Source of the DNA: Sphyrna mokarran
Lineage: Eukaryota
Assembly (NCBI GenBank): GCA_024679065.1
Contig: JAGIQG010000023.1
Coordinates: forward strand, 10,168,001 to 10,232,000
DNA: 64,000 nt
Reading direction: 5' to 3'
Shown here: positions 1-28,809 of the stretch, in pieces
How the letters are laid out: every line of letters starts with the position of its first letter
Position numbering within the stretch: position 1 is the first letter of the stretch
The notes under the pieces: model-generated
Told to the model about the DNA's origin: nothing
The model's database searches: none
What the model saw: only the letters and a program-made list of their open reading frames with translations
Made by a program: the position numbers and the translations under genes

Positions 1-260
1 CCTTGCCAACTTTTTGTCAAGGACAGCAGAGTCCAAGGTGAGATAATTCTGACACCCATCTCTCTCGATCATTGCTCTTGAGCCTCTGAATTACAATTCT
101 TCCAACATAATCATTGTTCTAAATGCCTTCTAGCTGCCGGACTCTGCACTGCTGCAGAGCCTCCAGACATCAGAGGAGCTGTCAATACTTCCTCTCAGAT
201 AAAGCACCGATCAGTCATTTCACTTGAGACTAATAAAGATAATCACTGAGAACAATTTAC

Positions 261-569
261 CTTCAGATATTTGTAGCTTTACAGAAAATATTGAAAGTAG
301 GCCGAGTTTATCAATACCACAGCTGTACCATCCTGCATCTTCTGGGCGAAGATCCTCCATAGTAACAACAAATAATCCTTGTGTTTTGTTATCTGAGATT
401 GACATTCTCCCTCGCCGTCCATCTGGATCGTCTGATTTTACCAAAACAGAGCACTGGCGACTCCAATATTTCACATGTGACTGGGACAATTTGTCATAGT
501 GACAATCAATAGTGATCGCTCTTCCCAAAGCTCCTGTTACATTATTTTTTGCCCACAATGCTATTGGAG
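261..569 (-). CDS. Ig receptor exon 22: V-set domain V10 (CD300/pIgR-like)
   Basis: Acceptor ttttag, donor G|GTAAAT, 309 nt, phase 1-1. APIALWAKNNVTG..ITIDCHY..KYWSRQC..DAGWYSC..KLQISE. Confidence 0.9.
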
Positions 570-1202
570 CTAAAAAGATGGCAAGTCAAAAGTTGAACTG
601 AAAATAATCGTTTAATACAAACAGATATGTTTCAACAGGATTTGATACCGTGCTCAGAGAAATCTCTGCGATATATTTTCTAATGCAATTGAATACTTTC
701 TTGTTTGAGATCATTGGGCTCATTGAGTACGTGCTCCCCACAGATTTATAATTAGGTAACCATATTGAGATTGTATACTAAGCCCTTTATAAAGCAGGAC
801 ATTAATAGATTACATAATCTTTTAGTTGTGTTCACCATAGGATTATGGCTATTGGTATTTCCATTTTGTACAATGAAAGCACAGTTCTGTCCCTTCCTGC
901 TAATGAAATTATAAAATTTTCATACAGCAATTGTCAAACAGAAGATTGTCTGCTCATGATCACATTAATCTTTGAGGGAGCTTATTGCTCATAGATTGGT
1001 GCTGAGCTTCCTACATCACAACAATGGCCGTGAATCAGTTCCAGCATTGACTGGAACGGAATTTAAGACTGTCCTGATGTTATGAAAAGTGAAAAATAAA
1101 TGCAATTCTATTTTAGTAAAGTTGCTTTGAACGACCAATAAATTTAAATGACATTAATTTAAAAATTAGTTGATTTTTTTTTAATTTTAATGTGATATTT
1201 AC

Positions 1203-1526
1203 CAATGTTGCTGACTTGTGTTAAATAACTGCAATCATTCTCCGAAATGTAGATCACTGACACTATAACCATTTCACTGGATTTGTCTCCCCGGTTATTT
1301 GAGGCTGTGCAGTAATATTGATGATGTCGCTGTGTGAAGGATTGACAATGTAGATCCAGTTTATTGCTGTCAGAGATCTTTGAATCTTCAGACGAGGTCT
1401 TTTTATACCATGTGTACTGAATGGGAAGTGATCCCTGGACAGACTCACAGGAGACGGACACTGAGCCCCCAGAACATGAGGCATTTGGTGCTGATAGAAA
1501 TTCAAGTTCAGGGGCTGACACGGGTT
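1203..1526 (-). CDS. Ig receptor exon 21: C2-type Ig domain C10
   Basis: Acceptor ttcccacag, donor G|GTAAAT, 324 nt, phase 1-1. EPVSAP..VSCES..YTWYK..LHC..YYCTASN..NDCSY. Confidence 0.9.
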
Positions 1527-2767
1527 CTGTGGGAAAAAGACAATCGTTAACGGATTTTCTCAATAATTTCATTGCAGTGTTTATGTGACACTAAGTAAAA
1601 AAAGCTTTAACTTTAAACTTTAAATGATTAATCTTTAGAATGACCAAAATATTAATTGGTTTCATATTACCAGTACTTCTACACTTCATCCAGGGTGTGA
1701 GGAGGAAGGGGAAGTGTTAGCGAGATATGGCAGTGGGCAATTGTCCGAAAGCAGATCTATTGATTGCTCTCATGTACAGCACATATTCATGATGATAGAT
1801 TAGTTAGTGACAAGCATTGGAGTGTGATCTGAGACAGACTGTGTATGTAGTGGAGATTTAAACATCTTTCCTAAAATCGATTGAATCTTGAGCTAAAAAG
1901 TCTGACATTGAATGATCCGCCCCCACTGCCAGTTAGAATAGGGAATTTGGCACTCAGGCAAATCTCCATTCACAGCAGCGGGACTGGATAATTCCAGCTG
2001 AGGACGAGTTTGGTGCATTCCAGACATTGTTTGTATTTGTATTTAACATTCGACAGTAAGTAGCATTGAAGATTAAAGTGTGAGTACTGTTTAAGGTCAA
2101 GATTTTATAAATTTGAACAAACGAGACTGAAAAATCCCGCGGAAGTCAACAGACGTTTCCGTTTTCTGCCCCACACCCGCTCCGAAACCATGACGGGCAA
2201 GGCAGTAAATTTTTAAAGCACCATCCAAGAACATGAGCTGGGAGATAGAAGCTTTCCGCTGGCAGCAACTGAAATAGTTAATTGGAGAAACTGGCTTGAA
2301 CTGCTGTTTTTGAGCTGAGTACCTTTGTTTTGAACATACAAAATCGGACGTTCTCATTGCAATCAACACTGGGCACTGACTTTACCAGAGTGTGGAAGTT
2401 TAATGAGCTGAAGAAATTTACTACAGAAGAAGAAGTGAGCTGTTGGTGAGTATCTGGTGAGCATCTGGAAAGTGATCAACGTTTATTGTCCGGGCATCAG
2501 GAGTATGGGTGGTATCCTTGCCAACTTGTTAACAGGACAGTCTGGTCCAAGGTGCAATAATTCTGTCCCCTCTCTCTGGATCATTACTCTTGAGCCTCTG
2601 AATTACAATTCTTCCAACATAATCATTTTTCTCCCTGCCCTCTAGTTGCCAGACTTTGCACTGCTGCGGTCTCCAGACATCGGAACGGTCAATGTCTGCT
2701 CTCAGATAAAGCACCAATCAGACTTTCCAGTCAAGTGTAATAAAGATAATCACTGAGAACAATTTAC

Positions 2768-3076
2768 CGTCAGATATTTGTAGCTTTACGGGAAATATTG
2801 AAAGGAGGCCGGGCTTATCAATACCACAGCTGTACCATCCTGCATCTCCTGGGCGAAGATCCTCCATAGTAACAACAAATAATCCTTGTGTCTTGTTATC
2901 TGTGATCGACATTCTCCCTCGCCGTCCATCTGGATCATCTGATTTTACCAAAACAGAGCACTGACGACTCCAAAATTTCACATGTGGTTGGGACAATTTG
3001 TCATAGTGACAATCGATAGCGATCGCTCTTCCTAAAACTCCTGTTACATTATTTTTTGCCCGCAATGGACTCGGAG
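2768..3076 (-). CDS. Ig receptor exon 20: V-set domain V9
   Basis: ttttcag acceptor, GTAAAT donor, 309 nt open, phase 1-1. Confidence 0.9.
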
Positions 3077-3744: not shown

Positions 3745-4068
3745 CAATGTTGCTGATTTGTGTTAAATAACTGCAATCCTTCTCTGAAATGTAGATCACT
3801 GACACTATAACCATTTCACTGGATTTGTTTCCCTGGTTATTTGAGGCTGTGCAGTAATATTGATGATGTTGCTGTGTGAACGATTGACAATGTAGATCCA
3901 GTTTATTGGTGTCAGAGATCTTTGAATCTTCAGACAGAGTCTTTTCATACCATGTGTACTGAATGGGAAGTGATCCTTGGACAGACTCACAGGAGACGGA
4001 CACTGAGCTCCCAGAACATGAGGCATTTGGTGGAGATAGAAATTTAAGCTCTGGAAAAGACACAGGTT
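3745..4068 (-). CDS. Ig receptor exon 19: C2-type domain C9
   Basis: ttccacag acceptor, GTAAAT donor, 324 nt open, phase 1-1. Confidence 0.9.
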
Positions 4069-6312: not shown

Positions 6313-6636
6313 CAATGTTGCTGATTTGTGTTAAATAACTGCAATCATTCTCTGAAATGTGGATCACTGACACTATGACCATTTTGCTGGATTTTTCTCC
6401 TTGGTTATTTGAGGCTGTGCAGTAATATTGATGATGTTGCTGTGTGAAGGATTGACAATGTAGATCCAGTTTATTGGTGTCAGAGATCTTTGAATCTTCA
6501 GATGGAGTCTTTTCATACCATGTGTACTGAATGGGAAGTGATCCCTGGACAGACTCACAGGAGACTGACACTGAGCCACCAGAACATGAGGCATTTGGTG
6601 GAGATAGAAATTTAAGCTCTGGAACAGATACGGGTT
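6313..6636 (-). CDS. Ig receptor exon 17: C2-type domain C8
   Basis: ttccacag acceptor, GTAAAT donor, 324 nt open. Confidence 0.9.
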
Positions 6637-7877: not shown

Positions 7878-8186
7878 CGTCAGATATTTGTAGCTTTACA
7901 GGAAATATTGAAAGGAGGCCGGGCTTATCAATACCACAGCTGTACCATCCTGCATCTCCTGGGCGAAGATCCTCCATCGTAACAACAAATAATCCTTGTG
8001 TCTTGTTATCTGTGATCGACATTCTCCCTCTCCGTCCATCTGGCTCATCTGATTTTACCAAAACAGAGCACTGACGACTCCAATATTTCACATGTGACTG
8101 GGACAATTTGTCATAGTGACAATTGATAGTGATCGCTCTTCCCAAAACTCCTGTTACATTATTTTTTGCCCACAATGCACTCGGAG
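7878..8186 (-). CDS. Ig receptor exon 16: V-set domain V7
   Basis: ttctcag acceptor, GTAAAT donor, 309 nt open. Confidence 0.9.
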
Positions 8187-8852: not shown

Positions 8853-9176
8853 CAATGTTGCTGATTTGTGTTAAATAACTGCAATCATTCTCTGAAACGT
8901 GGATCACTGACACTGTAACCATTTCACTGGATTTGTTTCCCTGGTTATTTGAGGCTGTGCAGTAATATTGATGATGTTGTTGTGTGAAGGATTGACAATG
9001 TAGATCCAGTTTATTGCTGTCAGAGATCTTTGAATCTTCAGACGGGGTCTTTTCATACCATGTGTACTGAATGGGAAGTGATCCCTGGACAGACTCACAG
9101 GCGGTGGACACTGAGCCCCCAGAACATGAGGCATTTGGTGCTGATAGAAATTTAAGTTCAGGAACAGACACGGGTT
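8853..9176 (-). CDS. Ig receptor exon 15: C2-type domain C7
   Basis: ttcccacag acceptor, GTAAAT donor, 324 nt open. Confidence 0.9.
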
Positions 9177-10230
9177 CTGTGGGAAAAAGACAATCATTAA
9201 CTGATTTTCTCAATAACTTCATTGCGGTGTTAATGTATGCCTACATGTGACACTGAATAAAAAAACTTCAACTTTAAATTTTAAATGACTAATCTTTAGA
9301 ATGACCAAAAAATTAAATAGTTCCATATTACCAGGACTTCTACACTTCATCAGGGACTGAGGAGGAAGGGGAATGTGTTTGAGAGTGATGGCAGTGGGGA
9401 ACTTGGCTGAATGCAGATAGTATCTGCATTCTGATTGCTCTCATGGACAGCAGATATTCATGATAGCAGATTAGTTAGTGTCAAGTATTGGAGTGTGATC
9501 TCAGATAGACTCTGTATGTTTGCTGAGATAATGGAGGTTTAAATATCTTTTCCCAAATATAACCTTGAGCTGAATGGTCTGATATTGAATGATCTTCCCC
9601 CGCTGCTAGTTGGAATCAAGAATTTGGCATTCAGCCAAATCTCCATTTACAGCAGCAGGACTGGATAATTCTCGCTACAGATGATTTTGGTGAATTCCAG
9701 GCATTGTTTGCATTTGTATTTAACATTCAACAGTAACTACCATTCAGCATTTAAGTGAGTACTGTTTCAAGTCTAGGGCAGGGTTTTATGAACTTGAACA
9801 AATGAGACTGGAAAATCACGCTAAAGGTCAACAGACATTTCCGTTCTCTGCCCCACACCCGCTGTGGCAAGGCAGCAAAATTCCGACGGAACTATCATCC
9901 AAAGGACATGAGCTGGGGGATAGAAGCTGTTAGCTGGCAGCAACTGAAACAGTTAATTGGGGAAACTGGCTTGAACTGCTCTTTTTGTACTGAGACATTT
10001 TTGCTTTAAATTCAGCATTTCTGACTTCAACCAAGTGTGGAGATTTAATGAGCTGAAGGAATTTACTACAGGGGAAAAAGTGAGCTGTTGGTGAATATCT
10101 GGTGAGTTTCCGGAACTCTGGAGGCTGCGGAGCCTCCAGACATCGGAGCTGTCAATATCTCCTCTCAGATAAAGCACCTATCAGACATTACAATCGAGAG
10201 TAATAAAGATCATCACTGAAAACAAATTAC

Positions 10231-10539
10231 CGTCAGATATTTGTAGCTTTACAGGAAATATTGAAAGTAGGCCGGGTTTATCAATACCACAGCTGTACCA
10301 TCCTGCATCTCCTGGGCGAAGATCCTCCATAGTAACAACAAATAATCCTTGTGTCTTGTTATCTGTGATCGACATTCTCCCTCGCCGCCCATCTGGATCG
10401 TCTGATTTTACTAAAACAGAGCACTGACGACTCCAAAATTTCACATGTGATTGGGACAATTTGTCATAGTGACAATTGATAGTGATCACTCTTCCCAAAA
10501 CTCCTGTTACATTATTTTTTGCCCACAACGCACTTGGAG
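10231..10539 (-). CDS. Ig receptor exon 14: V-set domain V6
   Basis: ttttcag acceptor, GTAATT donor, 309 nt open. Confidence 0.9.
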
Positions 10540-11196
10540 CTGAAAAGGCAACACGTCAAAAATTGAAATGAAAATAATTGGTTAATACAAACAGATATGT
10601 TTCAATAGGATTTGCTACCGTGTTCAGAGAAATCTCTGCAATACATCTTCTAATGCAATTGAATACTTGCTTATTTGAGATCATTGGGCTCATTGAGTAC
10701 GTGCTCCCCACACTGATAATTAGACAACTATATTGAGATTGTATTCTATACCCTTTATAAAGCAAGACTTTGAAAGGTTCCACTAATCTTTTAGTTCTGT
10801 TTGGGATCTGTTATGTTCACCACAGGCGTATGGTTATTGTTTATTTCCATTTTGTACAATGAAAGCACAGTTCCTTCATATCCGGCTCCTAAAGTTATTA
10901 AAGTTTCAAACAACAATTGTCAAATAGCTGATTGTCTGCTCATAATCACATTGGAGCTTTTTGCTCATAAACTGGAGCGGAGCTTCCTACATCACAATAA
11001 TCGTTCTGAATCAGTTCCGGCATTGACCAGAACAGGATTTAAGACTGTCATGAAGTTGTGAAAAATGAAAAATAAATGCAATTCTATTTCATTAAAATTG
11101 CTTTGAATAACCAGTGCAACTAAAACTGTGAGCGATTCTGCTGGACATTAATTTAAAAATTAGTTGATTTTTTTTGAAGTTTAACATGATATTTAC

Positions 11197-11520
11197 CAAT
11201 GTTGCTGATTTGTGTTAAATAACTACAATCATTCTCTGAAATGTGGATCACTGACACTGTAACCATTTCACTGGATTTGTCTCCCTGGTTATTTGAGGCC
11301 GTGCAGTAATATTGATGATGTTGCTGCGTGAAGAATTGACAATGTAGATCCAGTTTATTGGTGTCAGAGATCTTTGAATCTTCAGACGGGGTCTTTTCAT
11401 ACCATGTGTACTGAATGGGAAGTGATCCCTGAACAGACTCACAGGAAACAGATACTGAGCCCCCAGAACATGAGGCATTTGCTGCTGATAGAAATGTAAT
11501 TTCAGGAACAGACACGGGTT
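11197..11520 (-). CDS. Ig receptor exon 13: C2-type domain C6
   Basis: ttcctacag acceptor, GTAAAT donor, 324 nt open. Confidence 0.9.
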
Positions 11521-12714
11521 CTGTAGGAAAAAGACAATCATTAACAGATGTTCACAAAAACTTTATTACAGTGTTAATTTAAACCTTCTTGTGACATTGA
11601 GTGAAAAAAGTATTTAACTTTAAATGACTAAACTTTAGAACGACCAAAAAAAAAATGAAATTGTTACATTTTACCAGTGTTTTTACACATCACCCAGTGT
11701 GTGAGGAGGAAAGGAAAGTGTCAGAGAGAGAGGGAGAGATGGCAGTGGGAACTTGGCCAAATGTAGATAGTATCTATTGATTGCTCTCACGGACAGCAGA
11801 TATTCATGATAGCAGATTAGTTAGTGACAAGCATTGGAGATGTTTGCTCAGATAACGGAGACATCTTTTATAAAATCTAATGTTGACCTGAATTCTCTAA
11901 TATCAAACGATCTGCCTCCGTTGCCAGTTGGAGTAGGAATTTGGCACTTAACCAAATCTTCATTTACAGCAGTGGGACTGGATAATTCCAGCTGAGGATG
12001 AGTTTGGTGAATTCTAGGCATTGTTTGTATTTGTATTTAACGTTTAATAGTAAGTAGCATTCAACATTTAAGTGAGAGTACGGTTTCAAGTATAGAGTGG
12101 GGTTTTATGGCATCGAGCGACCAAGACTGGAAAATCCCGCCGAAGGTCAACAGACATTTCCGTTGTCTGCCCCACACCTGTTCTGATACCACAATGGGCA
12201 AGTCAGTAAAATTTCAAAAGTGTATCATCCAAAAGACAAAAGTTGGGAGATAGAAGCTATCAGCTGGCACCAACTGAGATAGTTAATTGGGGAAACTGAA
12301 TTGTTGTTTCTGAACTTAGCACTGGAATCTGACTTCAACCTGGTGTGAAGTTTCAATGAGCTGAAGGTATTTACTGCAGGGGAAGAAGTGAGCTGTTGAT
12401 GAGTATCTGGTGAGTATCCAGGAAGTGGTCAAGGTCTATTATCCAGGCATGGGAGCATGGGTGGAGTCCTTGCCAACTTGTTATCCATGGTCCAAGATGC
12501 AATAAATCTGCCCCCATCTCTCTGGATCATTACTCTGAGCCTCTGAATTACAATTCTTCCAACATAATCATTGTTCTAACTGCCCTCTAGTTGCCAGACT
12601 CTGCACTGCTGCGGAGTCTCAGGAAATCAGAGCTGTCAATGTCTCCTCCCAGAAAAAGTACTGATCAGACATTTCAGTTGACAGCAATAACGATAATCAC
12701 TGAGAACAATTTAC

Positions 12715-13023
12715 CATCAGAAATTTGTAGTTTTACAGGAAATATTGAAAGTAGGCCGGGTTTATCAATACCACAGCTATACCATCCTGCATCCCCTGGG
12801 CGAAGATCCTCCATAGTAACAACAAATAATCCTTGTGTTTTGTTATCTGTGATCGACATTCTCCCTCGCCGTCCATCTGGATCGTCTGATTTTACCAAAA
12901 CAGAACAGTGACGACTCCAATATTTCACATGTGACTGGGACAATTCATTATAGTGACAATTGATAGTGATCGGTCTTCCCAAAACTCCTGTTACATTACT
13001 TTTTGCCCACAATGCACTGGGAG
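12715..13023 (-). CDS. Ig receptor exon 12: V-set domain V5
   Basis: ttttcag acceptor, GTAAAT donor, 309 nt open. Confidence 0.9.
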
Positions 13024-13684
13024 CTGAAAAGACAACAGGTCAAAAATTGAACTGGAAATCATTGTTTCATTCAGGCAGATGTATTTCAATAAAATTTCCA
13101 CTGTGTTCGGAGAAATCTCTCAAAACATCTTGGAATGCAACTGAATGATTCCTTGTTAGAGATTGTTGGGATCATTGAACATGTTCTCCCCGTGGGGATT
13201 GATAATTAGGCAACTATATTAAGATTGTATTCTATACTCTTTATAAAGCAAGACCTTGAGAGGATCCATTAATCTTTTAGTCCTGTTTGGGATCTGTTTG
13301 GGTTCACCACAGGCATGTGGTCATTTTTTTTATTTTCATTTTATACAATAAAAGCACATTTCTTTCATACCCGACTCCTGGTGTTATTATATCCTCAAAC
13401 AGAATTGTTAGATAACAGTTTGCCTGCTCACGATCATATTGATCTTTGAAGGAGGTTACTGCTTCTAAATTGGCATTGAGCTTTCTACATCACAACAATC
13501 AGTTCCAGCATTGACATCAATGGATTTTAAAACTGATCTGAATTTGTGAAAAGTGAAAAATAAATGTGAATCTATTTTTATCAAAATTAATTTGAACGAC
13601 CAATAGTACTAAACCCATGAGCAATTCCAACAGTCATTATTTTAAAAATTAGTTGAATTTTTTGAAGCTTTAACTAATATTTAC

Positions 13685-14008
13685 CAATGCTGCTGATTTG
13701 TGTTAAATAACTGCAATCAATCTCTGAAATGTGGATCACTGACACAGTAACCATTTCACTGGATTCGTTTCCCTGGTTATTTGAGGCTGTGCAGTAATAT
13801 TGATGATGTTGTTGTGTGAAGGATTGACAATGTAGATCCAGTTTATTGGTGTCAGAGATCTTTGAATCTTGAGACAGGGTCTTTTCATACCATGAGTACT
13901 GAATGGGAAATGATCCCTTGTCAGACTCGCAGGAGACGGACACTGAGCCCCCAGAACATGAGGCATTTGGTGGTGATCGAAACTTAAGCTCAGGAACAGA
14001 CACGGGCT
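13685..14008 (-). CDS. Ig receptor exon 11: C2-type domain C5
   Basis: ttcccacag acceptor, GTAAAT donor, 324 nt open. Confidence 0.9.
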
Positions 14009-15262
14009 CTGTGGGAAAAAAGACAATTATTAACGGATTTTCATAGAAACTTCATTGCAGTGTTAATTAAACTTATATTAACTTGTGACACAAATTAAAT
14101 AAAACTTTAACTTCCATCTTTTAGACTTTAAAGTTTACAATGAAGAAAATAATTAAATAGTTTCATATTACCAATATTTAGACACCTCACGCACGTTGTG
14201 AGGAGGAAGAGAATGTTTCAGAGAGAGAGGTGGCAGCTGGAGCTTGTCTGAATGCAGATAATATCTATTGATTGCTCCCATGTTTAACAGATATTTATGA
14301 TAGCAGATTAGTTAGTAACAAGCATTGGAGTGTGATTTGAGGTAGACTTTGGATGTTTGCTGAGATAACAGAGAATTAAATATCTTTTCTAAAGTCCAGT
14401 CGTGACCTAAATTCTCTGATATCGAACAATCCATCCCCGTCACCAGTTGGAATAGAGAATTTGGTGCTCAGCCAAATCTCCACTCACACCAACAGGACTG
14501 GATAATTCCAGATGCGGCAGATTTTGATGAATTCCAGCCATTGTTTGTATTTAACATTCAACAGTAATTACCAATCAACTTTTAAGTGTGAGTACCGTTT
14601 CAAGTCTACAGTGAGATTTTATGGCCTCAAACGAGTAAGACTGGAAAATCCTTCTCAAGATCAACAGACGTTTCTGTTGTCTGTCCCACACCTGCTCCAA
14701 TACCACAGCTGACAAGGCAGTAAAATTCCAACGTAAGTATCGTCCAAAGGACATGTTTTGAGACATAGAAACTATCAATTGGCAGCAACTGAAATAGTTA
14801 ATTGGGGAAATGAGCTTAAACTGCTCTTTTTGTACTTAGTCCCTTTGTTTCTGAACTCAGCACTGGAGTCTGACTTCAACCGAATGTGGAGGTTCAATGA
14901 GCTGAAGGAATTTATTACAGGAGAATAAGCGAGCTGTTGGTGAGTATTGGGTGAGTATTCGGGAAATTGTCAAGGTCTATTCTCCAGGCAACGGGAGCAT
15001 GTGTGGGGCCCTTGCCAACTTGTTAATGAGGAGAGTGTGGTCCAAAGTGCAATAAATCTGACCCCATCTCTCCGGATTATAACTCTGAGCCTCTGAATTA
15101 CAATTCCTCCAACATAATCATTATTCTAACTGCCCTCTAGCTCACAGCCTTTGCACTGTTGCGGAGCCTCCAGACATCGGATCTGCCAATGTCTCCTCCC
15201 AGATAAAGCACCGATCAGTCATTTCAGTTGAGAGTAGTAAAGATAATCACTGAACAATTTAC

Positions 15263-15571
15263 CATCAGATATTTGTAGTTTTACAGGAAATATTGAAAGT
15301 TGACCGGGCTTATCAATACCACAGCTGTACCATCCTGCATCTCCTGGGTGAAGATCCTTCATAGTAACAACAAATAATCCTTGTGTTTTGTTATCTGTGA
15401 TCGACATTCTTCCTCGCCGTCCATCTGGATCGTCTGATTTTACTAAAACAGAGCACTGACGACTCCAATATTTCACATGTGACTGAGACAATTTGTCATA
15501 GTGACAATCGATAGTGATCGCTCTTCCCAAAACTCCTGTTATATTATTTTTTGACCACAATGCACTCGAAG
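15263..15571 (-). CDS. Ig receptor exon 10: V-set domain V4
   Basis: ttttcag acceptor, GTAAAT donor, 309 nt open. Confidence 0.9.
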
Positions 15572-16230
15572 CTGAAAAGGCAACAGGTCAAAAATTGAAA
15601 TGAAAATAATTGTTTAATACAAACAGATATATTTCAATAGGTTTTGCCACCATGTTCAGAGAAATCTCTGCAATACAACTTCTATTGCAATTGAATACTT
15701 CCTTGTTTGAATTCATTGGGATCATTGAATACGTGCTTCCTGCACATTGATAATAAGACGACCATATTGAGATTGTATACAAGCCCTTTATAAAGCAAGA
15801 TCTTGAGAGGTTCCATTCATCTTTTAGTCCTGTTTGGGATCTGTTGTGTTCACAGGCATGTGGTTATTATTTATTTACATTCTGTACAATAAAAGTATGA
15901 TTGCTTCACATCCAGCTCCTGGAGATTTTAAATTTTCAATCCACAATTGTCAGACAGCAGATTGTCTGCTCATGATCACATTGCTCTTTGAGGGAGTTCT
16001 TTATTGTTAATAAATTCGTGCTGAGTTTCTACATCACAACAATGGCTCTGAATCAGTTCTACCATTGACTGGAACGGAATTTTAGACTGTTCTGAACTTG
16101 TGAAAAATAAGTGCAGTTCTATTTTTATTAAAATCACTTTGAATGACCAATAGAACTAAAATGTGAGCAATTCAGATGGACATTAATTTAAAAACTTGTT
16201 GATTTTTCTGAAGCTTAACATGATATTTAC

Positions 16231-16554
16231 CAATGCTGCTGAATTGTGTGAAATAACTACAATCATTCTCTGATCTGTTGGTCACTGACACTGTAACCAT
16301 TTCACTGGATTTCTCTCCCTGGTTATTTGAGGCTGTGCAGTAATATTGATGATGTCGCTGTGTGAAGGACTGACAACGTAGATCCAGTTTATTGGTGTCA
16401 GAGATCTTTGAGTCTTCAGACGGAGTCTTTTCATACCATGTGTACTGAATGGGAAGTGATCCCTGGACAGACTCACAGGAGAGGGACACTGAGCCCCCGG
16501 AACATGAGGCATTTGGTTCTGATAGAAATTTAAGCTCAGGAACAGACACGGGTT
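16231..16554 (-). CDS. Ig receptor exon 9: C2-type domain C4
   Basis: ttcccacag acceptor, GTAAAT donor, 324 nt open. Confidence 0.9.
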
Positions 16555-17774
16555 CTGTGGGAAAAAAGCAATCATTAATGGATTTTCACAGTAACCTAAT
16601 TGCAGTGTTTATGTAGTCTACTTGTGACACTGAGTAAAAAAAAAATAACTTTAAACTTTAAATGATTAAACTTTAGAATGACCAAAAAATTAAATAGTTT
16701 CATATTACCAGTATTTCCACACCTCACGCAGGATATGAAGAGGAAGGGAGAGAGAGAGAGATGGCAGTGAGAACTTGGCCGAATGCAGATAGTATCTATT
16801 GATTGCTGTCACGGACAGCAGATATTTACGATAGCAGTGACAAGCATTGGAATGTGACCTGAGATAGCCTGTGTATATTTGCTGAGCTAATGGAGATTTA
16901 AATATCTTTCCTAAAATATAATCTTGAGCTGAATATTCTGACATTGAACGACCCGCCCCTGCTGCCGGTTGGAATAGGGAATTTGGCATTCAGCTGAATC
17001 TCCATTTACAACGGCGGGACTGGATAATTCCAGCTGAGGACGGGTTTAGTGAATTTCAGGCATTGTTTATATTTGTATTTAACATTCGACAGTAAGTAGC
17101 AATCAACATTTAAGTGTTAGTACTGTTTCAAGTCTAGGGTGGGGTTTCATGGCGTCGAACGACCAAGACTGAAAAATCCCGCTAAAGGTTAACAGACATT
17201 TCCATTGTCTGCTCCAGACCCGCTCTGATATCACAGCGGGTAAGGCAGTAAAATTCTGACGGAAGTATCATCCAAAGGACAGAAGTTGGAAGCTATCAGC
17301 TGGCACCAAGTGAAATAGTTAATAGGGAAAACTGAATTGAAGTACTCTTTTTGTTCTGAATCCCTTTGTTTTTGAACTCAGCACTGGAGTCCGACTTCAA
17401 CCAAGTGTGGAGGTTTAATGAGTTGAAGGAATTTACTACAGGGGAAGAAGTGAACTGTTGGTGAGTATCCAGGAAGTGGTCAAGGTCTATTATCCAGGCG
17501 TGGGGAGCATGAGTGGGATGCTTACCAACTTGTTAACCAGGAGAGCATGGTCGAAGGTGCAATAAATCTAACCTCATCTCTCTGGATCATCACTTTGAGC
17601 CTCTGAATTGCAATTCCTCCAACATAATCATTGTTCTAACTGCCCTCTAGCTGCCAGACTCTGCACTGCTGCGGCGTCCCAGAAATTTGGAGCTGTCAAT
17701 ATCTCCTCCCAGATAAAGCACCAATCAGACATTTCAGTTGAGAGTAATAAAGATAATCACTGAGAACAATTTAC

Positions 17775-18083
17775 CATCAGATATTTGTAGTCTTACAGGA
17801 AATATTGAAAGAAGGCCAGGTTTATCAATACCACAGCTGTACCATCCTGCATCTCCTGGGCGAAGATCCTCCATAGTAACAACAAAGATTCCTTGTGTCT
17901 TATTATCTGTCATTGACATTCTCCCTCGCCGTCCATCTGGGTCGTCTGATTTTACCAAAACAGAGCACTGACGACTCCAATATTTCACATGTGATTGGGA
18001 CAATTTGTCATAGTGACAATTGATAGTGATCGCTCTTCCCAAAACTCCTGTTACATTATTTTTTGCTCGCAATGAGCTCGGAG
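17775..18083 (-). CDS. Ig receptor exon 8: V-set domain V3
   Basis: tcttcag acceptor, GTAAAT donor, 309 nt open. Confidence 0.9.
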
Positions 18084-18747
18084 CTGAAGAGACAACAGGT
18101 CAAAAATTGAACTGAAAATCATTGTTTCATTCTAACAGATGTATTTCAATAAAATTTGCCACTGTGTTCGGAGAAATCTCTCAATACATCTTGGAATGCA
18201 ACTGAATGATTCCTTGTTAGAGATTGTTGGGATCATTGAACATGTTCTCCCCGTGGGGATTGATAATTAAGCAACTAAGATTGTATTCTATACTCTTTAT
18301 AAAGCAAGACTTTGAAAGATTCCACTAATCTTTTAGTCCTGGTTGGGATCTGTTGGGTTCACCACAGGCATGTGGGGTTTTTTTATTTTCATTTTGTACA
18401 ATAAAAGAACAGTTCTTTCACACCCGACTCCTGGCATTATTATATTCTCAAACAGAATTGTGAGACAGCAGATTATCTGCTCATGATCACATTCCTCTTT
18501 GAAGGACTTTATTGCTTATAAATTGGCATTGAGCTTCCTACATCACAGCAATGGCTCTGAATCAGCCCCAGCATTGACCAAAATGGAATTTAAAACTGAT
18601 CTGAATTTGTGAAAAGTGGAAAATAAATGTAAATCTATTTTTATCAAAATTAATTTGAACGAACAATAGAACTAAACCCGTGAGCAATTCTGACAAACAT
18701 GATTTTAAAAATTAGTTGAATTGTTTGAAGCCTCAACTGACACTTAC

Positions 18748-19071
18748 CAATGCTGCTGATTTGTGTTAAGTAACTGCAATCATTCTCTGAAATGTAGATC
18801 ACTGACACTGTAATCATTTTACTGGATTTTTCTCCCTGGTTATTTGAGGCTGTGCAGTAATATTGATGATGTTGTTGTGTGAAGGATTGACAATGTAGAT
18901 CTAGTTTATTGGTGTCAGAGATCTTTGAATCTTCAGATGGGATCTTTTCATACCATGTGTACTGAATGGGAAGTGATCCCTGGACAGACTCACAGGAAAC
19001 AGATACTGAGCCGCCAGAACATGAGGCATTTGGTGATGATAGAAATTTCAGTTCAGGAACGGACACGGGTT
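18748..19071 (-). CDS. Ig receptor exon 7: C2-type domain C3
   Basis: ttcccacag acceptor, GTAAGT donor, 324 nt open. Confidence 0.9.
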
Positions 19072-20330
19072 CTGTGGGAAAAAAGACAATTATTAACTGA
19101 TTTTCATATAAGCAATCATTAACGGATTTTCACTTTAACTTCATTCAGTGTTAATGTAACATTAATTGTGATACTGAATAAAAAAGGCTTTAACTTTAAA
19201 CTTTAAATGGCTAAACTTTAGAGTGACCAAAAAACTAAATAATTTCATATTACCAGTATTTCTCCACCTCAACCAGGATATGAGGAAGGGGAAGTGTTAG
19301 AAGGGAGAGAGAGAGATGGCAGTTGGAACTTGGCCAAATGCAGATAGTATCTAATGATTGCTCTCATGGAGAGCAGGTATTTACGATAGCAGATTAGTTA
19401 GTGACAAGCATTGGAATGTGATCTGAGATGAACTGTATATGTTTGAAGAGATAATGGAGACTTGAATATCTTTCTTAAAATCTAATCTTGTGTTGAATAG
19501 TCTGATATCAAGTAATCTGTCCCCACTGCCAGTTGGAATGGGGAATTTGGCACTCAGCCGAATCTCCATTCACAGCAGCGAAACTGGATAATTCCAGCTG
19601 CAAATGAGTTGGGTGAATTCCAGCCATTGTTTACATTTGTATTTAACATTTAACATTAAGTACCATTCAACATTAAAGTATGAGTCCTGTTTCGAATCTA
19701 GGGCGGGGTTTTATGACTTCGTACAAGTGAGACTGGAAAACCCCGCCCAAAGTTAACAGACATTTCCGTTGTCTGCCCCACACCCGCTCTGATACCATGG
19801 CGGGTAAGGCAGTAAAATTCCAATGTAAATGTCATCCAAAGGACACGAGCTTGGGGATAGAAGCTATTACCTGGCAGCAACTGAAATAGATAATTGGGGA
19901 AATTGGCTTGATCTGCTCTTTTTGTACCGAGTCTCTAGTTTTGAACTCAGCACTGGAGTCTGGCTTCAACCGCGTGTGGAGGTTTCATGGGCTGAAGGAA
20001 TTTACTACAGGGGAAAATGTGACCTTTCGGTAAATATCTGGTGAGTATTCGAGAATTGGTCAAGGTTTATTATCCAGGCACCGGGAGATGTGTGGAGTCC
20101 TTGCCAACTTATTAACCAGGAGAGTGTGGTCCAAGGTGCAATAAATCTGCCCCCATCTCTCTGGATCAATACTCTGAGCCTCTGAATTACAATTCCTCCA
20201 AAATAATCATTGTTCTAACTGTACTTGCTGCGGTCTCCAGAGATCGGAGTTGTCAATGTCTCCTCTCAGATAAAGCACAATCAGACATTTCAGTTGAGAG
20301 TAATAAAGATAATCACTAAGAACAATTTAC

Positions 20331-20639: not shown

Positions 20640-20821
20640 CTGAGAAGACAATAAGTCAAAAATTGAACTGACAATAATTGTTAAATACAAACAGATATTT
20701 TTCAATCGGATTTACCACTGTGTTCAGAGAAATCTCTGCAATACATTTTGGAATGCAATTGATTACTTCCTTGTTTGAGATCATTGGACTCATTGAATAT
20801 GTTCTCCCTGCGGATTGATAA

Positions 20822-21962
20822 TTGTTGTTCATCCATCATCATCGATGAGGACCTCGACACCATTAATCATTTTGAGTCTGGTTGCGGTGTCTCTAAAGAT
20901 GGCTGATCGGCCAATTCGGGCGTGGGATGTCCTGGCACATATTGGACAGACTTGTGTGGACACTGTAGTTGTTACAATGGTGGCTCTGGACTTGCGCAGC
21001 TCGCCCTTAAGTTGTCCTTCAGGAATACACCTTGCTACGTGAGCTTGACATCCTCCATGGATGAGGCAGCTCCAGGTAGGGCGGTGTTGTGCCAGCAGGG
21101 TGGTCAAGCGACTTCAGGAAGGTCTTGAGTATGTCTTTGAAACTTTTGTTTTGCCCTCCATTCGAGGGTCTTCAAGCAAAGAGTTCTCCAAAAAGGAGCT
21201 GCTTGGACATGCGCTTATCAGACATATGGATGACATGACCTGCCCAGTGGGTCTGCGCTCTCATCAGCAGTAGGGTTGTCCAAAAGTGTGCGCATGTTCC
21301 AAGTGCTAATGGTGAGCGGTGTCACCTTGTGTTTTGTTTGTTTGACCGCAAGCTGGGATCCCCACCAGCTGCAGTAAACTGGCCAAGGTGTAGGCAATGT
21401 TTAGGGCACTTTTCTAGCCCCTTCCTCATTCTACTGAGGTGAGCGATGTGTTCCTGAAGAGGACTGCTCAATCGCACAGGTAGACGCCAAGTTCCACTGC
21501 TACTTTGGTCAGCAGAAAATGACCATTACACCTGAGCCATCTGTGTGCAGGTCCGTGACTACAGCTCCCAGTGTATCCACACCTGCTGCTTTGTCGCTCA
21601 CCCATCGCCATGGGACTTCAAGGATTGAACAGGACACTGATGATGATGATGATGATGATGAAAATGTCAAAACTAGCATTTGGTTTGGATTAAAGTGAGG
21701 GAGATTTGCGCAGTGTCAGCCTCGCTCTCTCTTCTTATTCCCATCTAGATCCAGTGACGAGACAAGAGTCAAGGTGGCTGGAGATGGGACTAGGTGCAAT
21801 GGATGACCAGGGCGTCTTCTATGTCTTGTTCTGCTCTTCGTGTTCCATGATGCTTGCAGAAACCATCTTCTTGACTGTTGGATCTTCCATTGGTCTAATC
21901 CACTCAATCCACCAAAGTCAATCTTTACATGCTGAGATAGACATCTCCCTGTTTCACTGAAG
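20822..21962 (-). mobile_element. Internally deleted (non-autonomous) RTE-clade LINE with target-site duplication
   Basis: APE start LTISTWNMRTLLDNP (~21275-21325) abuts C-terminal motifs HWAGHV..KQLLFGEL and CPICARTSHARIG. Tail gatgatgatggatgaacaacaa. TSD GGATTGATAA at 20812-20821 and 21963-21972. Absent from the other units. Confidence 0.8.
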
Positions 21963-22481
21963 GGATTGATAAATAGTCAATCATTTTAAGATTGTATACT
22001 ACATATTGAGATTGTATACTATGTCCTTTATAAAGCAAGACCCGGAGAGGTTCCATTGATCTTTTAGTCCTTGTTGGGATCTGTTGTGTTTACCATAGGT
22101 GGTTGGTTATTGTTTATTTTCACTTTGGGCAGTAAAAGCACAGTTCCTTCCCATTAAGCTCCTGGAGTTATTAAATTCTCAAACAGCAATTCTCAGACAG
22201 CATCAGACTGTCTGTTCATTATCACATTCCTCTTGGAGGGAGCTTATTGCTTATAAATTGGCACTGATCTTCCTATATCACAACATTGGCTCTGAATCAG
22301 TTCTAGCATTGACCAAAATGGACTTTAAAACTGTCCAGAACTTGTGAAAAGTGAAAAATAAATGCAATTCTATTTTTATTAAAAATTTGTTTGAGGACCA
22401 AAAGAACTAAACCCATGAGCAATTTAGGCAGACATTAATTTAAATTTTAATTGAATTTCTAAAGCTTAAAGAGATATTTAC

Positions 22482-22805
22482 CAATGTTGCTGATTTGTGT
22501 TAAATAACTGCAATCATTCTCTGAAACATGGATCACTGACACTGTAACCATTTCACTGGATTTTGCTCCCTGGTTATTTGAGGCTCTGCAGTAATATCGA
22601 TGATGTTGCTGTGTGAAGGATTGACAATGTAGATCCAGTTTATTGGCGTCAGAGATCTTTGAATCTTGAGACGGGGTCTTTTCATACCACGTGTACTGAA
22701 TGGGAAGTGATCCCTGGACGGACTCACAGGAGATGGACACTGAGCCCCCAGAGCATGAGGCATTTGGTGGTGATAGAAATTTAATTTCAGGAACAGACAC
22801 GGGTT
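22482..22805 (-). CDS. Ig receptor exon 5: C2-type domain C2
   Basis: ccccacag acceptor, GTAAAT donor, 324 nt open. Confidence 0.9.
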
Positions 22806-24036
22806 CTGTGGGGAAAAAGAAACAATCATTAAAAGATTTTCACAGCAACTTCATCGCAGTGTAAATGTAAGCCTGCTTGTGATACAAATTAAATAAAAGT
22901 TTAACTTCCAACTTTAAAACTTTAAATTTTAGAATGACCAAAAAATTAAATAGTTTCATATTACCAGTATTTCTCCACCTCATCCAGTGTGTGAGGAGGA
23001 AGGGAAAGTATTAGAGAGAGATGGCAGTGTGAACTTGGTTGAATTCAGATAGTATCTATTGATTGCTCTCACGGACAGCAGATATTCATGATAGTAGGTT
23101 TGTTCATGACAAGCATTGGAGTGTGACCTGAGATAGGCTGTGTATGTTTGCTGAAAAAACAGAGACTTAAATATCTTTCCTACAATCTAATCTTGTCCTG
23201 AATTCTCCGACATCTAGCGATCCACCCCCACTATCAGTTGAGATAGGGGATTTGGTGCTCAGCCAAATCTCCACTCACAGAAGCGGGACTGGATAATTCC
23301 AGCTGAGGACAATTTTGGAGAATTCCAGACAATGTTTGTAATTAACATTAAACATTAAGTACTATTTAACCTTGAGATGTGAGTACTGTTTAAAGTCTAC
23401 GATGGATTTTATGGCCTCAAACGAGCAAGACTGGAAAATCACACCCAAGATCAACAGACATTTCTGCTGTCTGCCCCACACCTGCTCTGATACCATGACG
23501 GGCAAGGCAGTAAAATTCCGATGTAAGTATCATCCAAAGGACATGAGTTGGAAGGTAGAAGTTATCCGCTGGCAGCAAGTGCAATAGTTAATTGCAGAAA
23601 CTGGCTTGAACTGCTTTTTTTGTACTGAGTCCCTTTGTTTTTGAGCTCCGCACTGGAATCTGACTTCAACCAAGTGTGAAGGTTTAATGAGCTGAAGGAA
23701 TTTACTACAGGAGAAGAAGTGAGCTGTGAGTGAGTATCGGGTGAGTATTTGGGAATCCAGGCATCAGGAGCATGGGTGAGGTTCTTGCCAACTTGTTAAC
23801 CAGGGCAGCATGGTCAAGGTGCAATAAATCTGCCCCCATCTCTCCAGATCATTACTCTGAGCCTCTGAATTACAATTCCTCCAACATAATCATTGTTCTA
23901 ACTGCTTTCTAGCTGCCAGACTCTGCACTACTGCAGAGCCTCCAGACATCAGAGCTGTCAATATCTCCTCTCAGATAAATTACTGATCAGATATTTCATT
24001 CAAGAGTAATAAAGGTAATCACTGAGAACAATTCAC

Positions 24037-24345
24037 CTTCAGATATTTGTAGCTTTACAGGAAATATTGAACGGAGGCCGGACTTAGAAATACCACAGGT
24101 GTACCATCCTGCATCTCCTGGGCGAAGATCCTCCATAGTAACGACAAATAATCCTTGTGTCTTATTATCTGTGATCGACATTCTCCCTCGCCGTCCATCT
24201 GGATCGTCTGATTTTACCAAAAGAGAGCACTGACGATGCCAATATTTCACATGTGACTGGGACAATTTGTCATAGTGACAATCGATAGTGATCGCTCTTC
24301 CCAAAACTCCTGTTACACTATTTTCTGCCCACAAAGTACTTGGAG
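24037..24345 (-). CDS. Ig receptor exon 4: V-set domain V1
   Basis: ttttcag acceptor, GTGAAT donor, 309 nt open. Most divergent repeat V (KYWHRQC, GISKSGLRSIF). Confidence 0.9.
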
Positions 24346-24965
24346 CTGAAAAGACAACAGGTCAAAAATTGAACTAAAAATAGTTGTTTAATATAAACAG
24401 CTATATTTCAGTAGAATTCAGTAAATCTCCCTGATACAGCTTGGAATGCAATTGATATAATTTGGCTCATTGAATATATTCTCCCCATAGATTGATAATT
24501 AGACAACCATATTGAGATTCTATACTAAGCCCTTTATAAAGCAAGACCTTGAGTGGTTCCATTAATCTTTTCATCCTGGTTGGGATCTGTTGGGTTCACC
24601 ACAGGCGTATGGTTATTGTTTATTTTCATTTTGTACAAAAAAGCACAGTTCCTTCACATCTATCTCCTGGAGTTATTATATTTTCAAACAGCAATTGTTC
24701 GACAGTAAATTGTCTGTTCATGTTCACATTGCTCTTTGAGGGAACCTATTGCTCACACGTTGGTGCTGAGCTTCCTACATTGGTTCTGAATCAGTTCCAG
24801 CATTGACCAGAACGGACTTCAAAACTATCCTGAAGTTAATGAAAAGTGAAAAATAAATGCAATTCTATTTTTATTAAAATTGCAATTAAAATGATCAATA
24901 AAACTAAACCCATAAGCAATTCAGACAGACATAATTAAATTCCTGTAGCTTAAAGAGATGTTTAC

Positions 24966-25289
24966 CAATGTTGCTGATTTGTGTTAAATAACTGCAATCA
25001 TTCTCTGAAATGTGGATCACTGACACTGTAACCGTTTCACTGGATTTGTTTCCCTGGTTATTTGAGGCTGTGCAGTAATATTGATGATGTCGCTCTGTGA
25101 AGGATTGACAATGTAGATCCAGTTTATTGGTGTCAGAGATCTTTGAATCTTCAGACGGGGTCTTTTCATACCATGAGTACTGAATGGGAAGTGATCCCTT
25201 GAGAGACTCACAGGAGACGGACACTGAGCCCCCAGAACATGAGGCACTTGGTGGTGATAAAAATCTAAGTTCAGGAACAGACACAGGTT
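24966..25289 (-). CDS. Ig receptor exon 3: C2-type domain C1
   Basis: ttcccacag acceptor, GTAAAC donor, 324 nt open. Confidence 0.9.
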
Positions 25290-25731
25290 CTGTGGGAAAG
25301 AAACAAACATTCAGAAATTGACTGAACATTTAAAAATCAAACACTCCGTGAATTTCAGTTCACAACCTCTCATTCAGGGTCAGTCATGTTGTAATCTCAC
25401 CAATACATCCAGCTCTCCACATGTCTCCATCTTCCAAACAGTCTGAACTACATTCTCTATTATTATTTCAGAATATAGCAGCTCTCCAGGTCAGACCATG
25501 AACCAGGAGACAAAGATTTAAATTAATTGGTGAATAGATTAGAGGAGATTTGGGACAATGGGTTATTTCACTCGGGAGATGTTGAGAGTCTGGAATTCAC
25601 TGCCTGGAAGAGTGGGAGAGGATGGGAGAGGTGGATAACCTGATCAGATTAAAGAAAATGGATTAAACTTGAGATGCTGTAACCTATGGATCTCTGGATC
25701 AAGAACTAGATGGTGGGATTGGATTGGACCT

Positions 25732-25899
25732 AGCGTGGCACAGTGGCACAGTGATTAACACTGCAACCTCACAGCGCCAGGGACCCGGATTCAATTCCAG
25801 CATTGGCTGTGTGGTCAGTGTGGAGTTTGCATGTTCTCCCTGCGTCTGCCTGGTTTTCCTCTAGATGTTTCAGTTTCCTCCCACAGCCAAAGATGTGCA
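25732..25899 (+). mobile_element. tRNA-derived V-domain SINE (HE1-like), partial
   Basis: A-box/B-box-like head (ggcacagtg..ggattcaattcc) followed by V-SINE core gtgtggagtttgcatgttctccc..ttcctcccacag. Confidence 0.7.
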
Positions 25900-25909
25900 T
25901 ATATCCACG

Positions 25910-26280
25910 GGGAGGTGACAGACTATTGGTGTTATTACTCGCCTAATAATCCAGAATCTCGGTTAATGTTCTAGGGACTCAGGTTTGAATCCCACCATGG
26001 CAGGTGGTGGAATTTGATTTCAATAAGGAAATTCTGGAATTAAGGATCTACTGATGACCATGAAACATTGTCAGCTGTTGGAAATACCCATCTGGTTCAC
26101 GAATGCCTACTAGGGAATGAAATCTACCATCCTTTCCTGGTCTGGCCTACATGAGATGCCAGAGCCACAGCAATGTGGTAATTCTTAACTGTCCTCTGAA
26201 ATGCCCTTGCAAACTCTCAGGATGAGCAATAAATGCCACCCAGCCAGCAATGCCCACGTCTTCAAATGATTGAAAAAGAA
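25910..26280 (+). mobile_element. tRNA-derived SINE, unclassified (related copy at ~45880-46220)
   Basis: B-box ggtttgaatccc and a body shared with 45880-46220 (ctggtctggcctacatg..gatgcccac); A-rich end. Confidence 0.55.
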
Positions 26281-27288
26281 ATATTTGCACCTCCCATCAG
26301 GCACCACGGCCAATGTGGGTGGTGCTGGGGGGTTCGGGGGTGGCATACTGGAGGGTGGTGCCTATTGGGGGCTCAATGATTATGGTGGTTTTAACTGACA
26401 CTGACGCTGGTATCGTAGGAGAGGGAAAGGGAAGGGCAGTGGCGATTTGGGTTGGGTGGGGGGAAATCAGGCTGGCCATCTGGATGGGAGGAGATTGGGG
26501 TTGGCCCAGGAGAGATCTGGTAGGCCAGCGGTCGGATGGTAGTGATAGAGGGGAGTGAGGATAGCCAGTGATTAGGAGGCCAGAGGTGATGGGGCCACTG
26601 CGCATGTGCCAATATCTGCAGTGACAGATCGGTGCATGTGCAGTGGTCCACTCAGCATTACGCTGTGGGTCTCTCCAGTGGGATTTTGGACCTGCAGACC
26701 ACATTCCAGACTGAATCACTCTGTATCGGAGAAGCGTTCTGATTGTTGTCAAATGAGCTCTCCAGACACTGGAATTCCAACACATCACAGAAGCTGATCA
26801 GGAAACGTGTACTCCCTGTGTTGTGGGATTGCCCCGTCAGTGAGCTGCTTGTCTCTGTTCAATCTTTTGTCTTGTGGAGCAAGTTGTTGCTCTTGATGTT
26901 ATTGGTCTCATCTATTGGCCCAAAATGAAACAGTCTGAGAGCCACCCATGCTGATCTGATAGATACAATTGCCAAAATGTCACCCAGAAATATACATTCC
27001 CACCACTGTCGTGAAAGTCAACGTCCTTTAAATACTAATATTAAACCTTTCACACAATCTGGCTAGAAATAAGCAGTGAGGTTCCAATGCTTCTTGGCAT
27101 CTTTCCCGGTCACATCTTCAGCCTCCCCCATTGCCTCTGTCTTCTGCCCTTGCTCAGTAACCCGAGCAGCCAATTGCACTCACTGAGCTATTAATACACT
27201 GATAACCCGTCTCTCACCGGGGGTATTTGATCACACACAGATTGACACATTTAAAGTTTCCTTGAAGCTTTTTATGATCATATGGAAA

Positions 27289-27825
27289 TTTGGAATATGG
27301 TGTCCAATTCTGGTCACAACACAATCAGAATGACGTGGAGGCTTCGGAGAAATTGCAGAAAACGTTTACCGGGATGTCCCCTAATGTGGAGGAGACTAAC
27401 TATGAGGAGAGTTTGAATGAGCTGGGATTATTCTCCCTGGAAAGACGAAGGTTCAGGGACAACCTGATGGAAATTTATAAAATTATGAAAGTTATAGATA
27501 GAGTGAACAGTTGGAAGCTTTTCCCAAGGCAGAAATGACAATTACAAGGGGCACAACTTCAAGCTCAGGGGTGAGAGATTCAGTAGAAATGTGCAGGTGA
27601 ACTTTTTTTTTTTTACACAGAGGATGAATGGGGATCTGGAATGCACTGCCAAGTGAGGTGGTTGAGGCAGATACATTAGCCACATTTCAGACTTATCGTG
27701 ACAGACATATGAACAAACAGCGAGGAGAGGGATATAAGCACTTCGTCTAGACAGGTAAATGCGATTGGTACAGGCTTGGAGGGCCGAAGGGCCTGTTCCT
27801 GTGCTGTCCTGTTCTTTGTTCTTTG
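27289..27825 (+). mobile_element. CR1 LINE 3' fragment, degenerate
   Basis: LEYGVQFWS..LGLFSLERRR motif; tail gttctttgttcttt. Confidence 0.8.
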
Positions 27826-28457
27826 ATCCCTGTCAGGGGCTTCCACCATGTTAAATTATGTAATTGTTAAATTTTCCAATTTGTTAACTTTTAATCTGTC
27901 AGCTTCACCCTGAATTTTTACTGGTTTATTTGAAAGAAGCACAAACTGACACATTGCAGATACAGACGGATGTTGGGGATTTGACTGGCTTCCCAACATA
28001 TTGTCAATTTCTGTATATTTAACCCCTCTGTGTTCCCCCACAGCCCCACCATTCACTGCTAAACCAAAAGGTACAATTACTACCAACTGACTGCTCACTT
28101 CACTTTGTTAATGTCTGACTACTAGATTGATGCCAACTGTAAAAATCTGACAGTGTGATATTTAATACATTTCAGACACAGAAAAATATTCTGAGCATCG
28201 CAGGTAATTTTTTTCACAATATCATATAGTGAAAGGAATTGTTTGTCGAATCACGTTTGAAATTCTTGGTCAGAATATTGGACAGACCGCAAACTGAGTT
28301 TGTGTCACAAGAGTCAGATTTCGCAATCTCTGCCCTCTAGCTGTCAGACTCTGCATTGCTGCAGAGCATCGCGTTATCGGAGCTGTCAATCTTTCCTTGC
28401 AGACAAAACATGGATCAGACATTTCAGTAATAAAAAAAATCATTGAGAATAACACAC

Positions 28458-28772
28458 CGTGAGATATTTGCAGCTCCACAGTAAACTTTGGATCGAAGAA
28501 ATAAGTAGCAATTGCACAGCGATACCATCCTGCGTCTTCGAAGTGAAGATCCTTGATCGTAACAGCAAATTTTCCTTCTGACTTGTAATCTGTGATCAAC
28601 GTTTTCTCTTGAGATCCATCTGGATCATCTGTTCTCACTAAAGATGAACAAACTACACTCCAACCCTGACACCAATATTTCACATTTTCTTCGTATTTTT
28701 TATTATAATAGCAATTTATTGTGATCGCTCTTCCCACAATTCCTGTGACTCTGTTTTCTGCGCACAAATCAT
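28458..28772 (-). CDS. Ig receptor exon 2: N-terminal V-set domain V0 (canonical 4-Cys CD300/pIgR-type)
   Basis: Acceptor ttctgtttcag, donor G|GTGTGT, 315 nt, phase 1-1. INCYY..KYWCQGWSVVC..DAGWYRCAIATYFFDPKFTVELQISH. Confidence 0.88.
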
Positions 28773-28809
28773 CTGAAACAGAAGAGAAAACATTTCAGCA
28801 ATTGACCAA

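Follow-up and report, generated by a model that had tools for sequence, protein, structure and literature searches.

We analysed a 64,000-nt stretch of the Sphyrna mokarran genome (G000:C805:10168001-10232000; hereafter, the window) together with 46 stretches of 10 kb from its neighbourhood and one further stretch that overlaps. On its minus strand, the window carries a gene encoding a long array of immunoglobulin (Ig) domains. We refer to this gene as W, and to its sister genes in the same cluster as A, B, C, D, and E. Between positions 28772 and 261, all 21 Ig exons are phase 1-1, as stated in the first-pass annotation that drew attention to the locus. All 21 also have AG/GT ends, and joined in order they give 2227 aa with no stop codon. 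Their lengths are 315, 309, or 324 nt, all multiples of three. Exons for Ig domains are ordinarily phase 1-1. That annotation had limited the system to positions 261-28772 and to 11 V exons. However, the leader exon (35758-35722) lies outside this span, beyond a 6.9-kb first intron that contains a long interspersed nuclear element (LINE), and the gene continues to the left of the window, giving 14 V and 14 C exons (28 Ig domains) in total. The features of W are listed below, in window positions unless the contig G000:C805 is named.

35722-35758, minus strand: leader exon, 37 nt, from ATG to a phase-1 donor (GTGAGT), MWILILFIFSLP
28458-28772, minus strand: V0, divergent tip V domain of CD300/pIgR type, starting DDLCA; upstream tandem acceptor lost
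24966-25289, minus strand: C0, FCRL-like C2-type Ig exon
24037-24345, minus strand: V1
22482-22805, minus strand: C1
20331-20639, minus strand: V2
18748-19071, minus strand: C2
17775-18083, minus strand: V3
16231-16554, minus strand: C3
15263-15571, minus strand: V4
13685-14008, minus strand: C4
12715-13023, minus strand: V5
11197-11520, minus strand: C5
10231-10539, minus strand: V6
8853-9176, minus strand: C6, folded with a predicted local distance difference test (pLDDT) score of 83.7
7878-8186, minus strand: V7, folded with pLDDT 86.9; first strand from the L of ALWA
6313-6636, minus strand: C7
5336-5644, minus strand: V8
3745-4068, minus strand: C8
2768-3076, minus strand: V9
1203-1526, minus strand: C9
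261-569, minus strand: V10
1-260, minus strand: intron crossing the window edge
G000:C805 10166990-10159087, minus strand: C10, V11, C11, V12, C12, V13, and C13, beyond the window
G000:C805 10156737-10156659, minus strand: stalk exon with stop
G000:C805 about 10154890, minus strand: remnant of the deleted transmembrane (TM) exon
G000:C805 from 10151661, minus strand: last tail exon, both tyrosines lost; first tail exon missing

The V and C2-type exons alternate (VC x14), and a V-C2 unit measures 309 + 324 = 633 nt. The intron between C1 and V2 (window 20640-22481) is 1,842 nt long, against about 660 nt in the other units, which indicates an insertion of about 1.2 kb. The repeat V domains share 88-97% identity with V7. 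The predicted chain contains 45 sequons and 114 cysteines, with three cysteines per internal V exon and five per C exon. Among homologs, whose rows are not independent, an extra cysteine in the C domain goes with a cysteine in the next stalk (97 of 128 stalks, against 4 of 53 otherwise), and 17 of 18 V domains with a free cysteine come after a C domain with the extra one. This pattern suggests a disulfide from each C domain to the next V domain or stalk, with C12-V13 as an exception.

The V exons of W matched the Pfam V-set domain and pIgR/CD300 structures, with pIgR as the closest solved relative by sequence, and the C exons matched FCRL5. With the V7 model, the top VIA-align matches were CD300a (Z 11.4, root-mean-square deviation 2.9, 93 aligned), CD300c (11.0), and CD300lf (10.9); a fold search with the C domain returned only generic Ig and Fn3 matches. 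The first search for homologs retrieved 40, of which 39 were chondrichthyan and one was from the sturgeon Huso, the nearest being from Mustelus (82-88%). A later search reached skate MDIR2, MDIR3, and MDIR5. W V domains are 51-53% identical to three MDIR3 V domains (E 2e-35), and C6 is 67% and 52% identical to MDIR3 C domains. These three skate proteins share with W the leader type, the V opening VSGALWA, internal domains included, and the C2-type domain.

The genomic setting also resembles that of the modular domain immune-type receptors (MDIR) of clearnose skate, which are clustered and include arginine-bearing and tyrosine-motif members. MDIR is described as a multigene family with activating and inhibitory members (PMC3031540). 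In the W cluster, a pattern search found 13 leader exons within 464 kb, and the TM exons are of two types, arginine-bearing and tyrosine-tail. Of the Ig exons in the cluster that have boundaries and no stop, all 80 are phase 1-1, also in single-unit genes. In contrast to MDIR2, MDIR3, and MDIR5, which have 2, 5, and 4 Ig domains, W has 28 and lacks the TM segment and tail of a type I membrane receptor: its stalk carries a stop, its TM exon is deleted, and its first tail exon is missing. On these comparisons, W is an MDIR-family (CD300/pIgR-like) immune-receptor gene, and a derived variant rather than a receptor.

We then compared the 3' ends of the cluster genes. In the five sister genes, a stalk exon of 70-79 nt comes after the last domain, and the intact family path runs from the stalk through a TM exon and a short tail exon to a last exon with two tyrosine motifs. 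In W, the stalk has TAA where all five sister stalks have AAA, the TM exon is removed by a deletion of about 880 nt and its donor changed from GT to AT, the first tail exon is missing, and both tyrosines of the last exon are gone (IVY to IVS and VTY to VTN). Paralog B, with 10 units (20 Ig domains), also lacks the first tail exon; its TM exon has a changed acceptor, a 5-nt deletion, and a deleted donor, and its last exon has a 1-nt deletion. The deletion breakpoints differ between W and B, and the TM exon is retained in A, C, D, and E, the four sisters with short arrays. W and B have lost the same exons by different lesions, and the best reading is that they represent independent conversions.

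Joining the stalk to the last exon, the path we infer, would give a protein of 2,987 aa for W, with the stop 11 nt before the last junction, and of 2,153 aa for B, with the stop in the last exon. Because stops so close to, or past, the last junction escape nonsense-mediated decay, transcripts of both genes would escape it. No convincing hydrophobic exon was found in the 19 kb downstream of W, and among the TM exons found, the closest intact one on the same strand is that of gene A, at a distance of about 150 kb. W is anchorless and is therefore likely to encode a giant secreted protein. We also considered a separate 'secretory' last exon (SLIFPG-stop) between the stalk and TM exons, whose divergence was 0.119, compared with 0.147-0.159 in the nearest intron parts. 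This candidate was dropped on that comparison and because its ATTAAA lies in a dispersed repeat and no joint from the stalk to this exon was among the joints listed.

Selection on the repeats was then estimated, leaving out the first V, the last C, and one shorter C exon per gene. The ratio of nonsynonymous to synonymous substitution rates (dN/dS) was 0.28 (V) and 0.36 (C) in W, and 0.43 and 0.49 in B, with all bootstrap intervals below 1. None of the 28 Ig exons of W or the 20 of B contains a stop or frameshift, and the introns show 8-13 indels of a length other than a multiple of three per kb per pair. V0 has 26 private residues, compared with 2-6 in its sisters, and only 1 of the 26 falls in the 20 invariant columns (5 expected, P 0.015); its divergence resembles diversification more than decay. 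A tree of 26 C-V units placed six of nine B units in one starred clade and W units in clades of six and four; the last units of W, B, and D grouped together, and neither W nor B formed a single clade. The middle units of the W and B arrays expanded largely separately.

The transcript data came from one contig-only run (X1), taken as RNA by guess. For window 10200-19100, no RNA run was listed, and X1 carried 0.05 of the sequence words. On window 23900-35900, X1 was swamped by repeats, and no leader joint appeared among the 15 of 68 joints listed; on L041:600-6460, no leader-to-V joint appeared among the 15 listed. Loose ends listed for these two regions were 6 of 986 and 6 of 274, respectively. 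The missing leader joints are no evidence against skipping. Three X1 joints among the 15 listed for the latter region lay at exon ends. They link the last C to the stalk, the end of a C to the start of a V, and a first-V-like contig to the start of a C, this contig being taken as a V0-like record because the two agree in length and depth. All three are compatible with in-order splicing; the contigs match no W unit exactly and could not show skipping.

On balance, W is probably an MDIR-family gene that has grown to 14 V-C2 units and encodes an anchorless chain of about 2,990 residues that is likely secreted. Splicing likely proceeds for the most part in order, from the leader to V0, through the units, and from the stalk to the last exon. 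The array would have grown by tandem duplication of the two-domain V-C2 unit, and the gene has lost its membrane and signalling exons. Long and glycosylated, the product would carry a single fast-evolving V at its tip, and its other 13 V domains would be nearly identical. For CD300 and pIgR, the known ligands are lipids and polymeric Ig, and pIgR also transports the latter. The secreted chain might bind a repetitive ligand by avidity and act in soluble form as a decoy or opsonin, alongside activating and inhibitory paralogs that stay membrane-bound. Paralog B would have undergone the same conversion independently, yielding a protein of 10 units and about 2,150 aa. We propose more tentatively that sharks repeatedly converted a paired CD300/pIgR-like receptor to giant secreted multivalent Ig chains (of 20 and 28 domains, twice in one cluster) as germline-encoded soluble decoys or opsonins, possibly with a length ladder produced by skipping symmetric V-C2 units.

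Several observations weigh against a functional secreted product. The main rival is a young pseudogene, in which the array grew and was selected while the protein was membrane-bound, loss of the TM exon killed W, and the Ig exons have so far not decayed. The dN/dS signal may date from before the anchor was lost. Compared with its sisters, V0 has a dN/dS of 1.0-1.6, and its signal-peptide end is degraded; the 3' region has several lesions, a LINE is inserted behind the TM remnant, and the cluster is rich in relics. The X1 V contig differs at 3 or more of 220 nt from every internal V exon, so X1 yielded no transcript specific to W, and the 3' splice path is inferred. In Mustelus, P0047 and P0002 (described below) keep the TM exon and tail on six-unit arrays.

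Nevertheless, we regard the young-pseudogene explanation as rather unlikely. No disabling lesion was found in the 8,859 (W) and 6,327 (B) nt of coding sequence, compared with 2 and 4 small ones, respectively, in the 3' arm of 499 nt. For confinement of the small lesions to this arm, P was 0.053 (W) and 0.0004 (B) when the first lesion is counted as free. The test is marginal for W alone, takes mutability to be equal throughout, and would miss deletions of whole units and gene conversion. Broken paralogs in the cluster do have stops in Ig exons (two such exons), and the stop in both giants is placed to escape decay.

The first-pass annotation had proposed a possible cassette system, in which the single leader could splice to any V exon (11 in its count, 14 in all) or whole units could be skipped, tuning tip identity and ectodomain length. 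One of its grounds was correct as described: the ten repeat V exons open with APSTLWA, APSALRA, APSSLRA, ASSALWS, APSALWA (three times), ALSALWA, APSPLRA, and APIALWA, and leader plus V0 reads LP-DDLCA. Related starts occur throughout the family. Of the 13 first V exons in the cluster that have boundaries, 12 read GA(L/F)(W/Q/R)A, the exception being W V0, and VSGA(L/V)WA also opens internal V domains of skate MDIR3 and MDIR5. First V exons of the family have a tandem acceptor (cag-tttcag) with AGs 6 nt apart, where the upstream AG gives LP-VSGALWA and the downstream AG gives LP-GALWA; both forms were found in RefSeq isoforms. At V0 of W (acceptor at window 28772), the upstream AG is lost and GALWA has changed to DDLCA. 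Because internal V exons splice at the upstream AG, APSALWA corresponds to the same seven codons as VSGALWA, with Pro in place of the Ser of VSG.

In the AlphaFold model of V7 (pLDDT 86.9, 21 rows), the first strand begins at L4, and residues 3-4 align with residues 2-4 of the CD300lf and pIgR chains. Across 25 equal-length internal V exons (1 of 26, with a 24-nt insertion, was omitted), the motif codons ranked as the second most variable of 97 seven-codon windows, with a proportion of nonsynonymous differences (pN) of 0.102 versus 0.042. The ratio of pN to its synonymous counterpart was about 0.40 in the motif versus 0.33 elsewhere in these exons. As the motif is family-wide and no more constrained than the rest of the exon, it is inherited and not specially kept. 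Signal-peptide cleavage may fall before or after ALWA. The APSALWA start is an inherited family feature within the first strand of the predicted domain and most likely not a splicing switch, as the same annotation had allowed in suggesting a vestige of ancestry.

The splicing signals gave a similar picture. Donors are mostly GTAAAT (16 of 21 window Ig exons), as had been noted, but they are not weaker: internal V donors matched 6.2 and C donors 6.3 of the nine U1 positions, compared with 5.3 for first and other V donors. Weak donors as a tuning device were accordingly rejected, internal V donors being no weaker than first-V donors. Leader plus V0 had also been judged arguably the poorer signal peptide, and the usual signal-peptide end is indeed lost at V0. 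The V0 acceptor is the richer in pyrimidines (15 of 17, versus 12-14 of 17 for repeat V exons). No leader copy was found inside the W array. Between intron 1 and the 10 pre-V introns, the longest perfect pairings were 10-12 nt and scattered, against a shuffled mean of 11.2 (perfect pairings only). Perfect pairing was at chance level, and on this basis no docking/selector system was found.

Gene models of homologs offer some examples of skipping. We looked up 30 of 135 homologs, mostly from multi-member clusters, and obtained 19 isoform sets (3 paired by name only). A whole Ig exon or unit was skipped in 4 of the 19; a fifth pair, different by one unit but with 32 mismatches, was left out of this count. 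In one of the four, from Heptranchias perlo (XP_067863712-714), isoforms X1 and X2 join the leader to unit 2 and isoform X3 joins it to units 1-2, with no mismatches elsewhere. However, V1 and V2 of this gene are identical over their first 30 residues, and mis-mapped reads or a second leader could explain the model. Unit skipping may occur as ordinary alternative splicing; the analysis gave no sign of a dedicated system.

Overall, a regulated cassette system seems improbable to us. The symmetry of all exons, the loss of the normal signal-peptide end at V0 with xxALWA retained in the repeat V exons, and the isoforms above are in its favour. On the other hand, a motif no more constrained than the rest of its exon, the Pro of internal V exons, the better V0 acceptor, and the lack of perfect selector pairing above chance argue against it. 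Choice of the tip would bring little diversity, because the repeat V domains are so similar to V7, and the odd third cysteine of internal V domains may need the preceding C domain. That W remains membrane-bound by an unseen route, with the stalk skipped and C13 spliced to another anchor exon, is highly improbable: phase-1 ends would permit it and family RefSeq models vary at the 3' end, but the 19 kb downstream gave no convincing hydrophobic exon, and the nearest intact one found on this strand is that of gene A.

Returning to the in-order, secreted reading of W, we compared the gene with known systems. Two Mustelus asterias RefSeq models, XP_078098058 (P0047) and XP_078098045 (P0002), have six V-C units, and P0047 has a leader identical to that of W and APSALWA-type internal V domains. 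Unlike W, both keep the stalk, TM segment, and tyrosine motifs, and they are under half its length. The Mustelus models P0001 and P0003 lack a TM segment and may be truncated. The longest homolog fetched has at most 12 Ig domains, compared with 28 in W, and none of 2,301-5,000 aa was found among 5,884 candidates, which is weak evidence.

The V fold is shared with mammalian CD300, pIgR, and TREM, but in W it alternates with an FCRL-like C2 domain, and internal V domains lack one cysteine of the extra pair. By description, pIgR has only two to five V domains and a single-pass TM segment (PMC7916673); the alternating V-C2 array of W, with no TM segment, does not have this architecture. Carp SITR (soluble immune-type receptor) is described as a CD300/MDIR-related Ig protein without TM segment or tail (PMC3031540). 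SITR has two domains, against 20-28 in B and W, which retain the ruins of anchor exons in their DNA. In shark genomes, a 2014 survey reported neither pIgR nor FcRL homologs (PMC4016189). We found no paper on giant or secreted shark MDIRs in the literature searched, whose coverage excluded most subscription papers, the original MDIR paper included.

In Dscam1-type systems, docking/selector pairing picks one exon from a tandem array of related Ig exons, and transcripts use the alternative exons exclusively. W has such an array, but its exons would be joined one after another, no perfect selector pairing above chance was detected, and its repeats are near-identical rather than diversified.

Other features of the region were also recorded. 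Gene C (G000:C805:10096028-10110830) has a single unit with an arginine within a tyrosine-tail-type TM segment, and has lost both the extra C-domain cysteine and the stalk cysteine. A relic family member lies on the plus strand at window 44272-46756 and about 47700-47767. It retains the two tail exons, of which the last contains stops, and a decayed leader copy that has no ATG; no Ig exons were found alongside. The leader of paralog D (window 61446-61482, plus strand) has diverged from that of W, and D, whose second V is broken and whose last exon contains a stop, is probably a pseudogene. LINE remnants lie on the minus strand at window 29562-30743 and 51073-53567 (RVT_1 E 2e-20; esterase-like open reading frame (ORF) E 7e-6), and an assembly gap of 100 N occupies window 51157-51256. 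ORF pieces at window 42988-43611, 49759-50049, and 53899-54297 (all minus strand) had no Pfam match and by eye look like remnants of long terminal repeat elements (a membrane-spanning piece and integrase-like pieces).

The MDIR family has barely been studied. If W and B are both young pseudogenes, they would reflect ordinary birth and death in an immune cluster. If the secreted reading is true, the longest arrays were made anchorless twice and independently. This would indicate that a soluble function was selected at the root of the CD300/pIgR lineage, and the predicted chains would offer a concrete target for proteomics of shark plasma or mucus.

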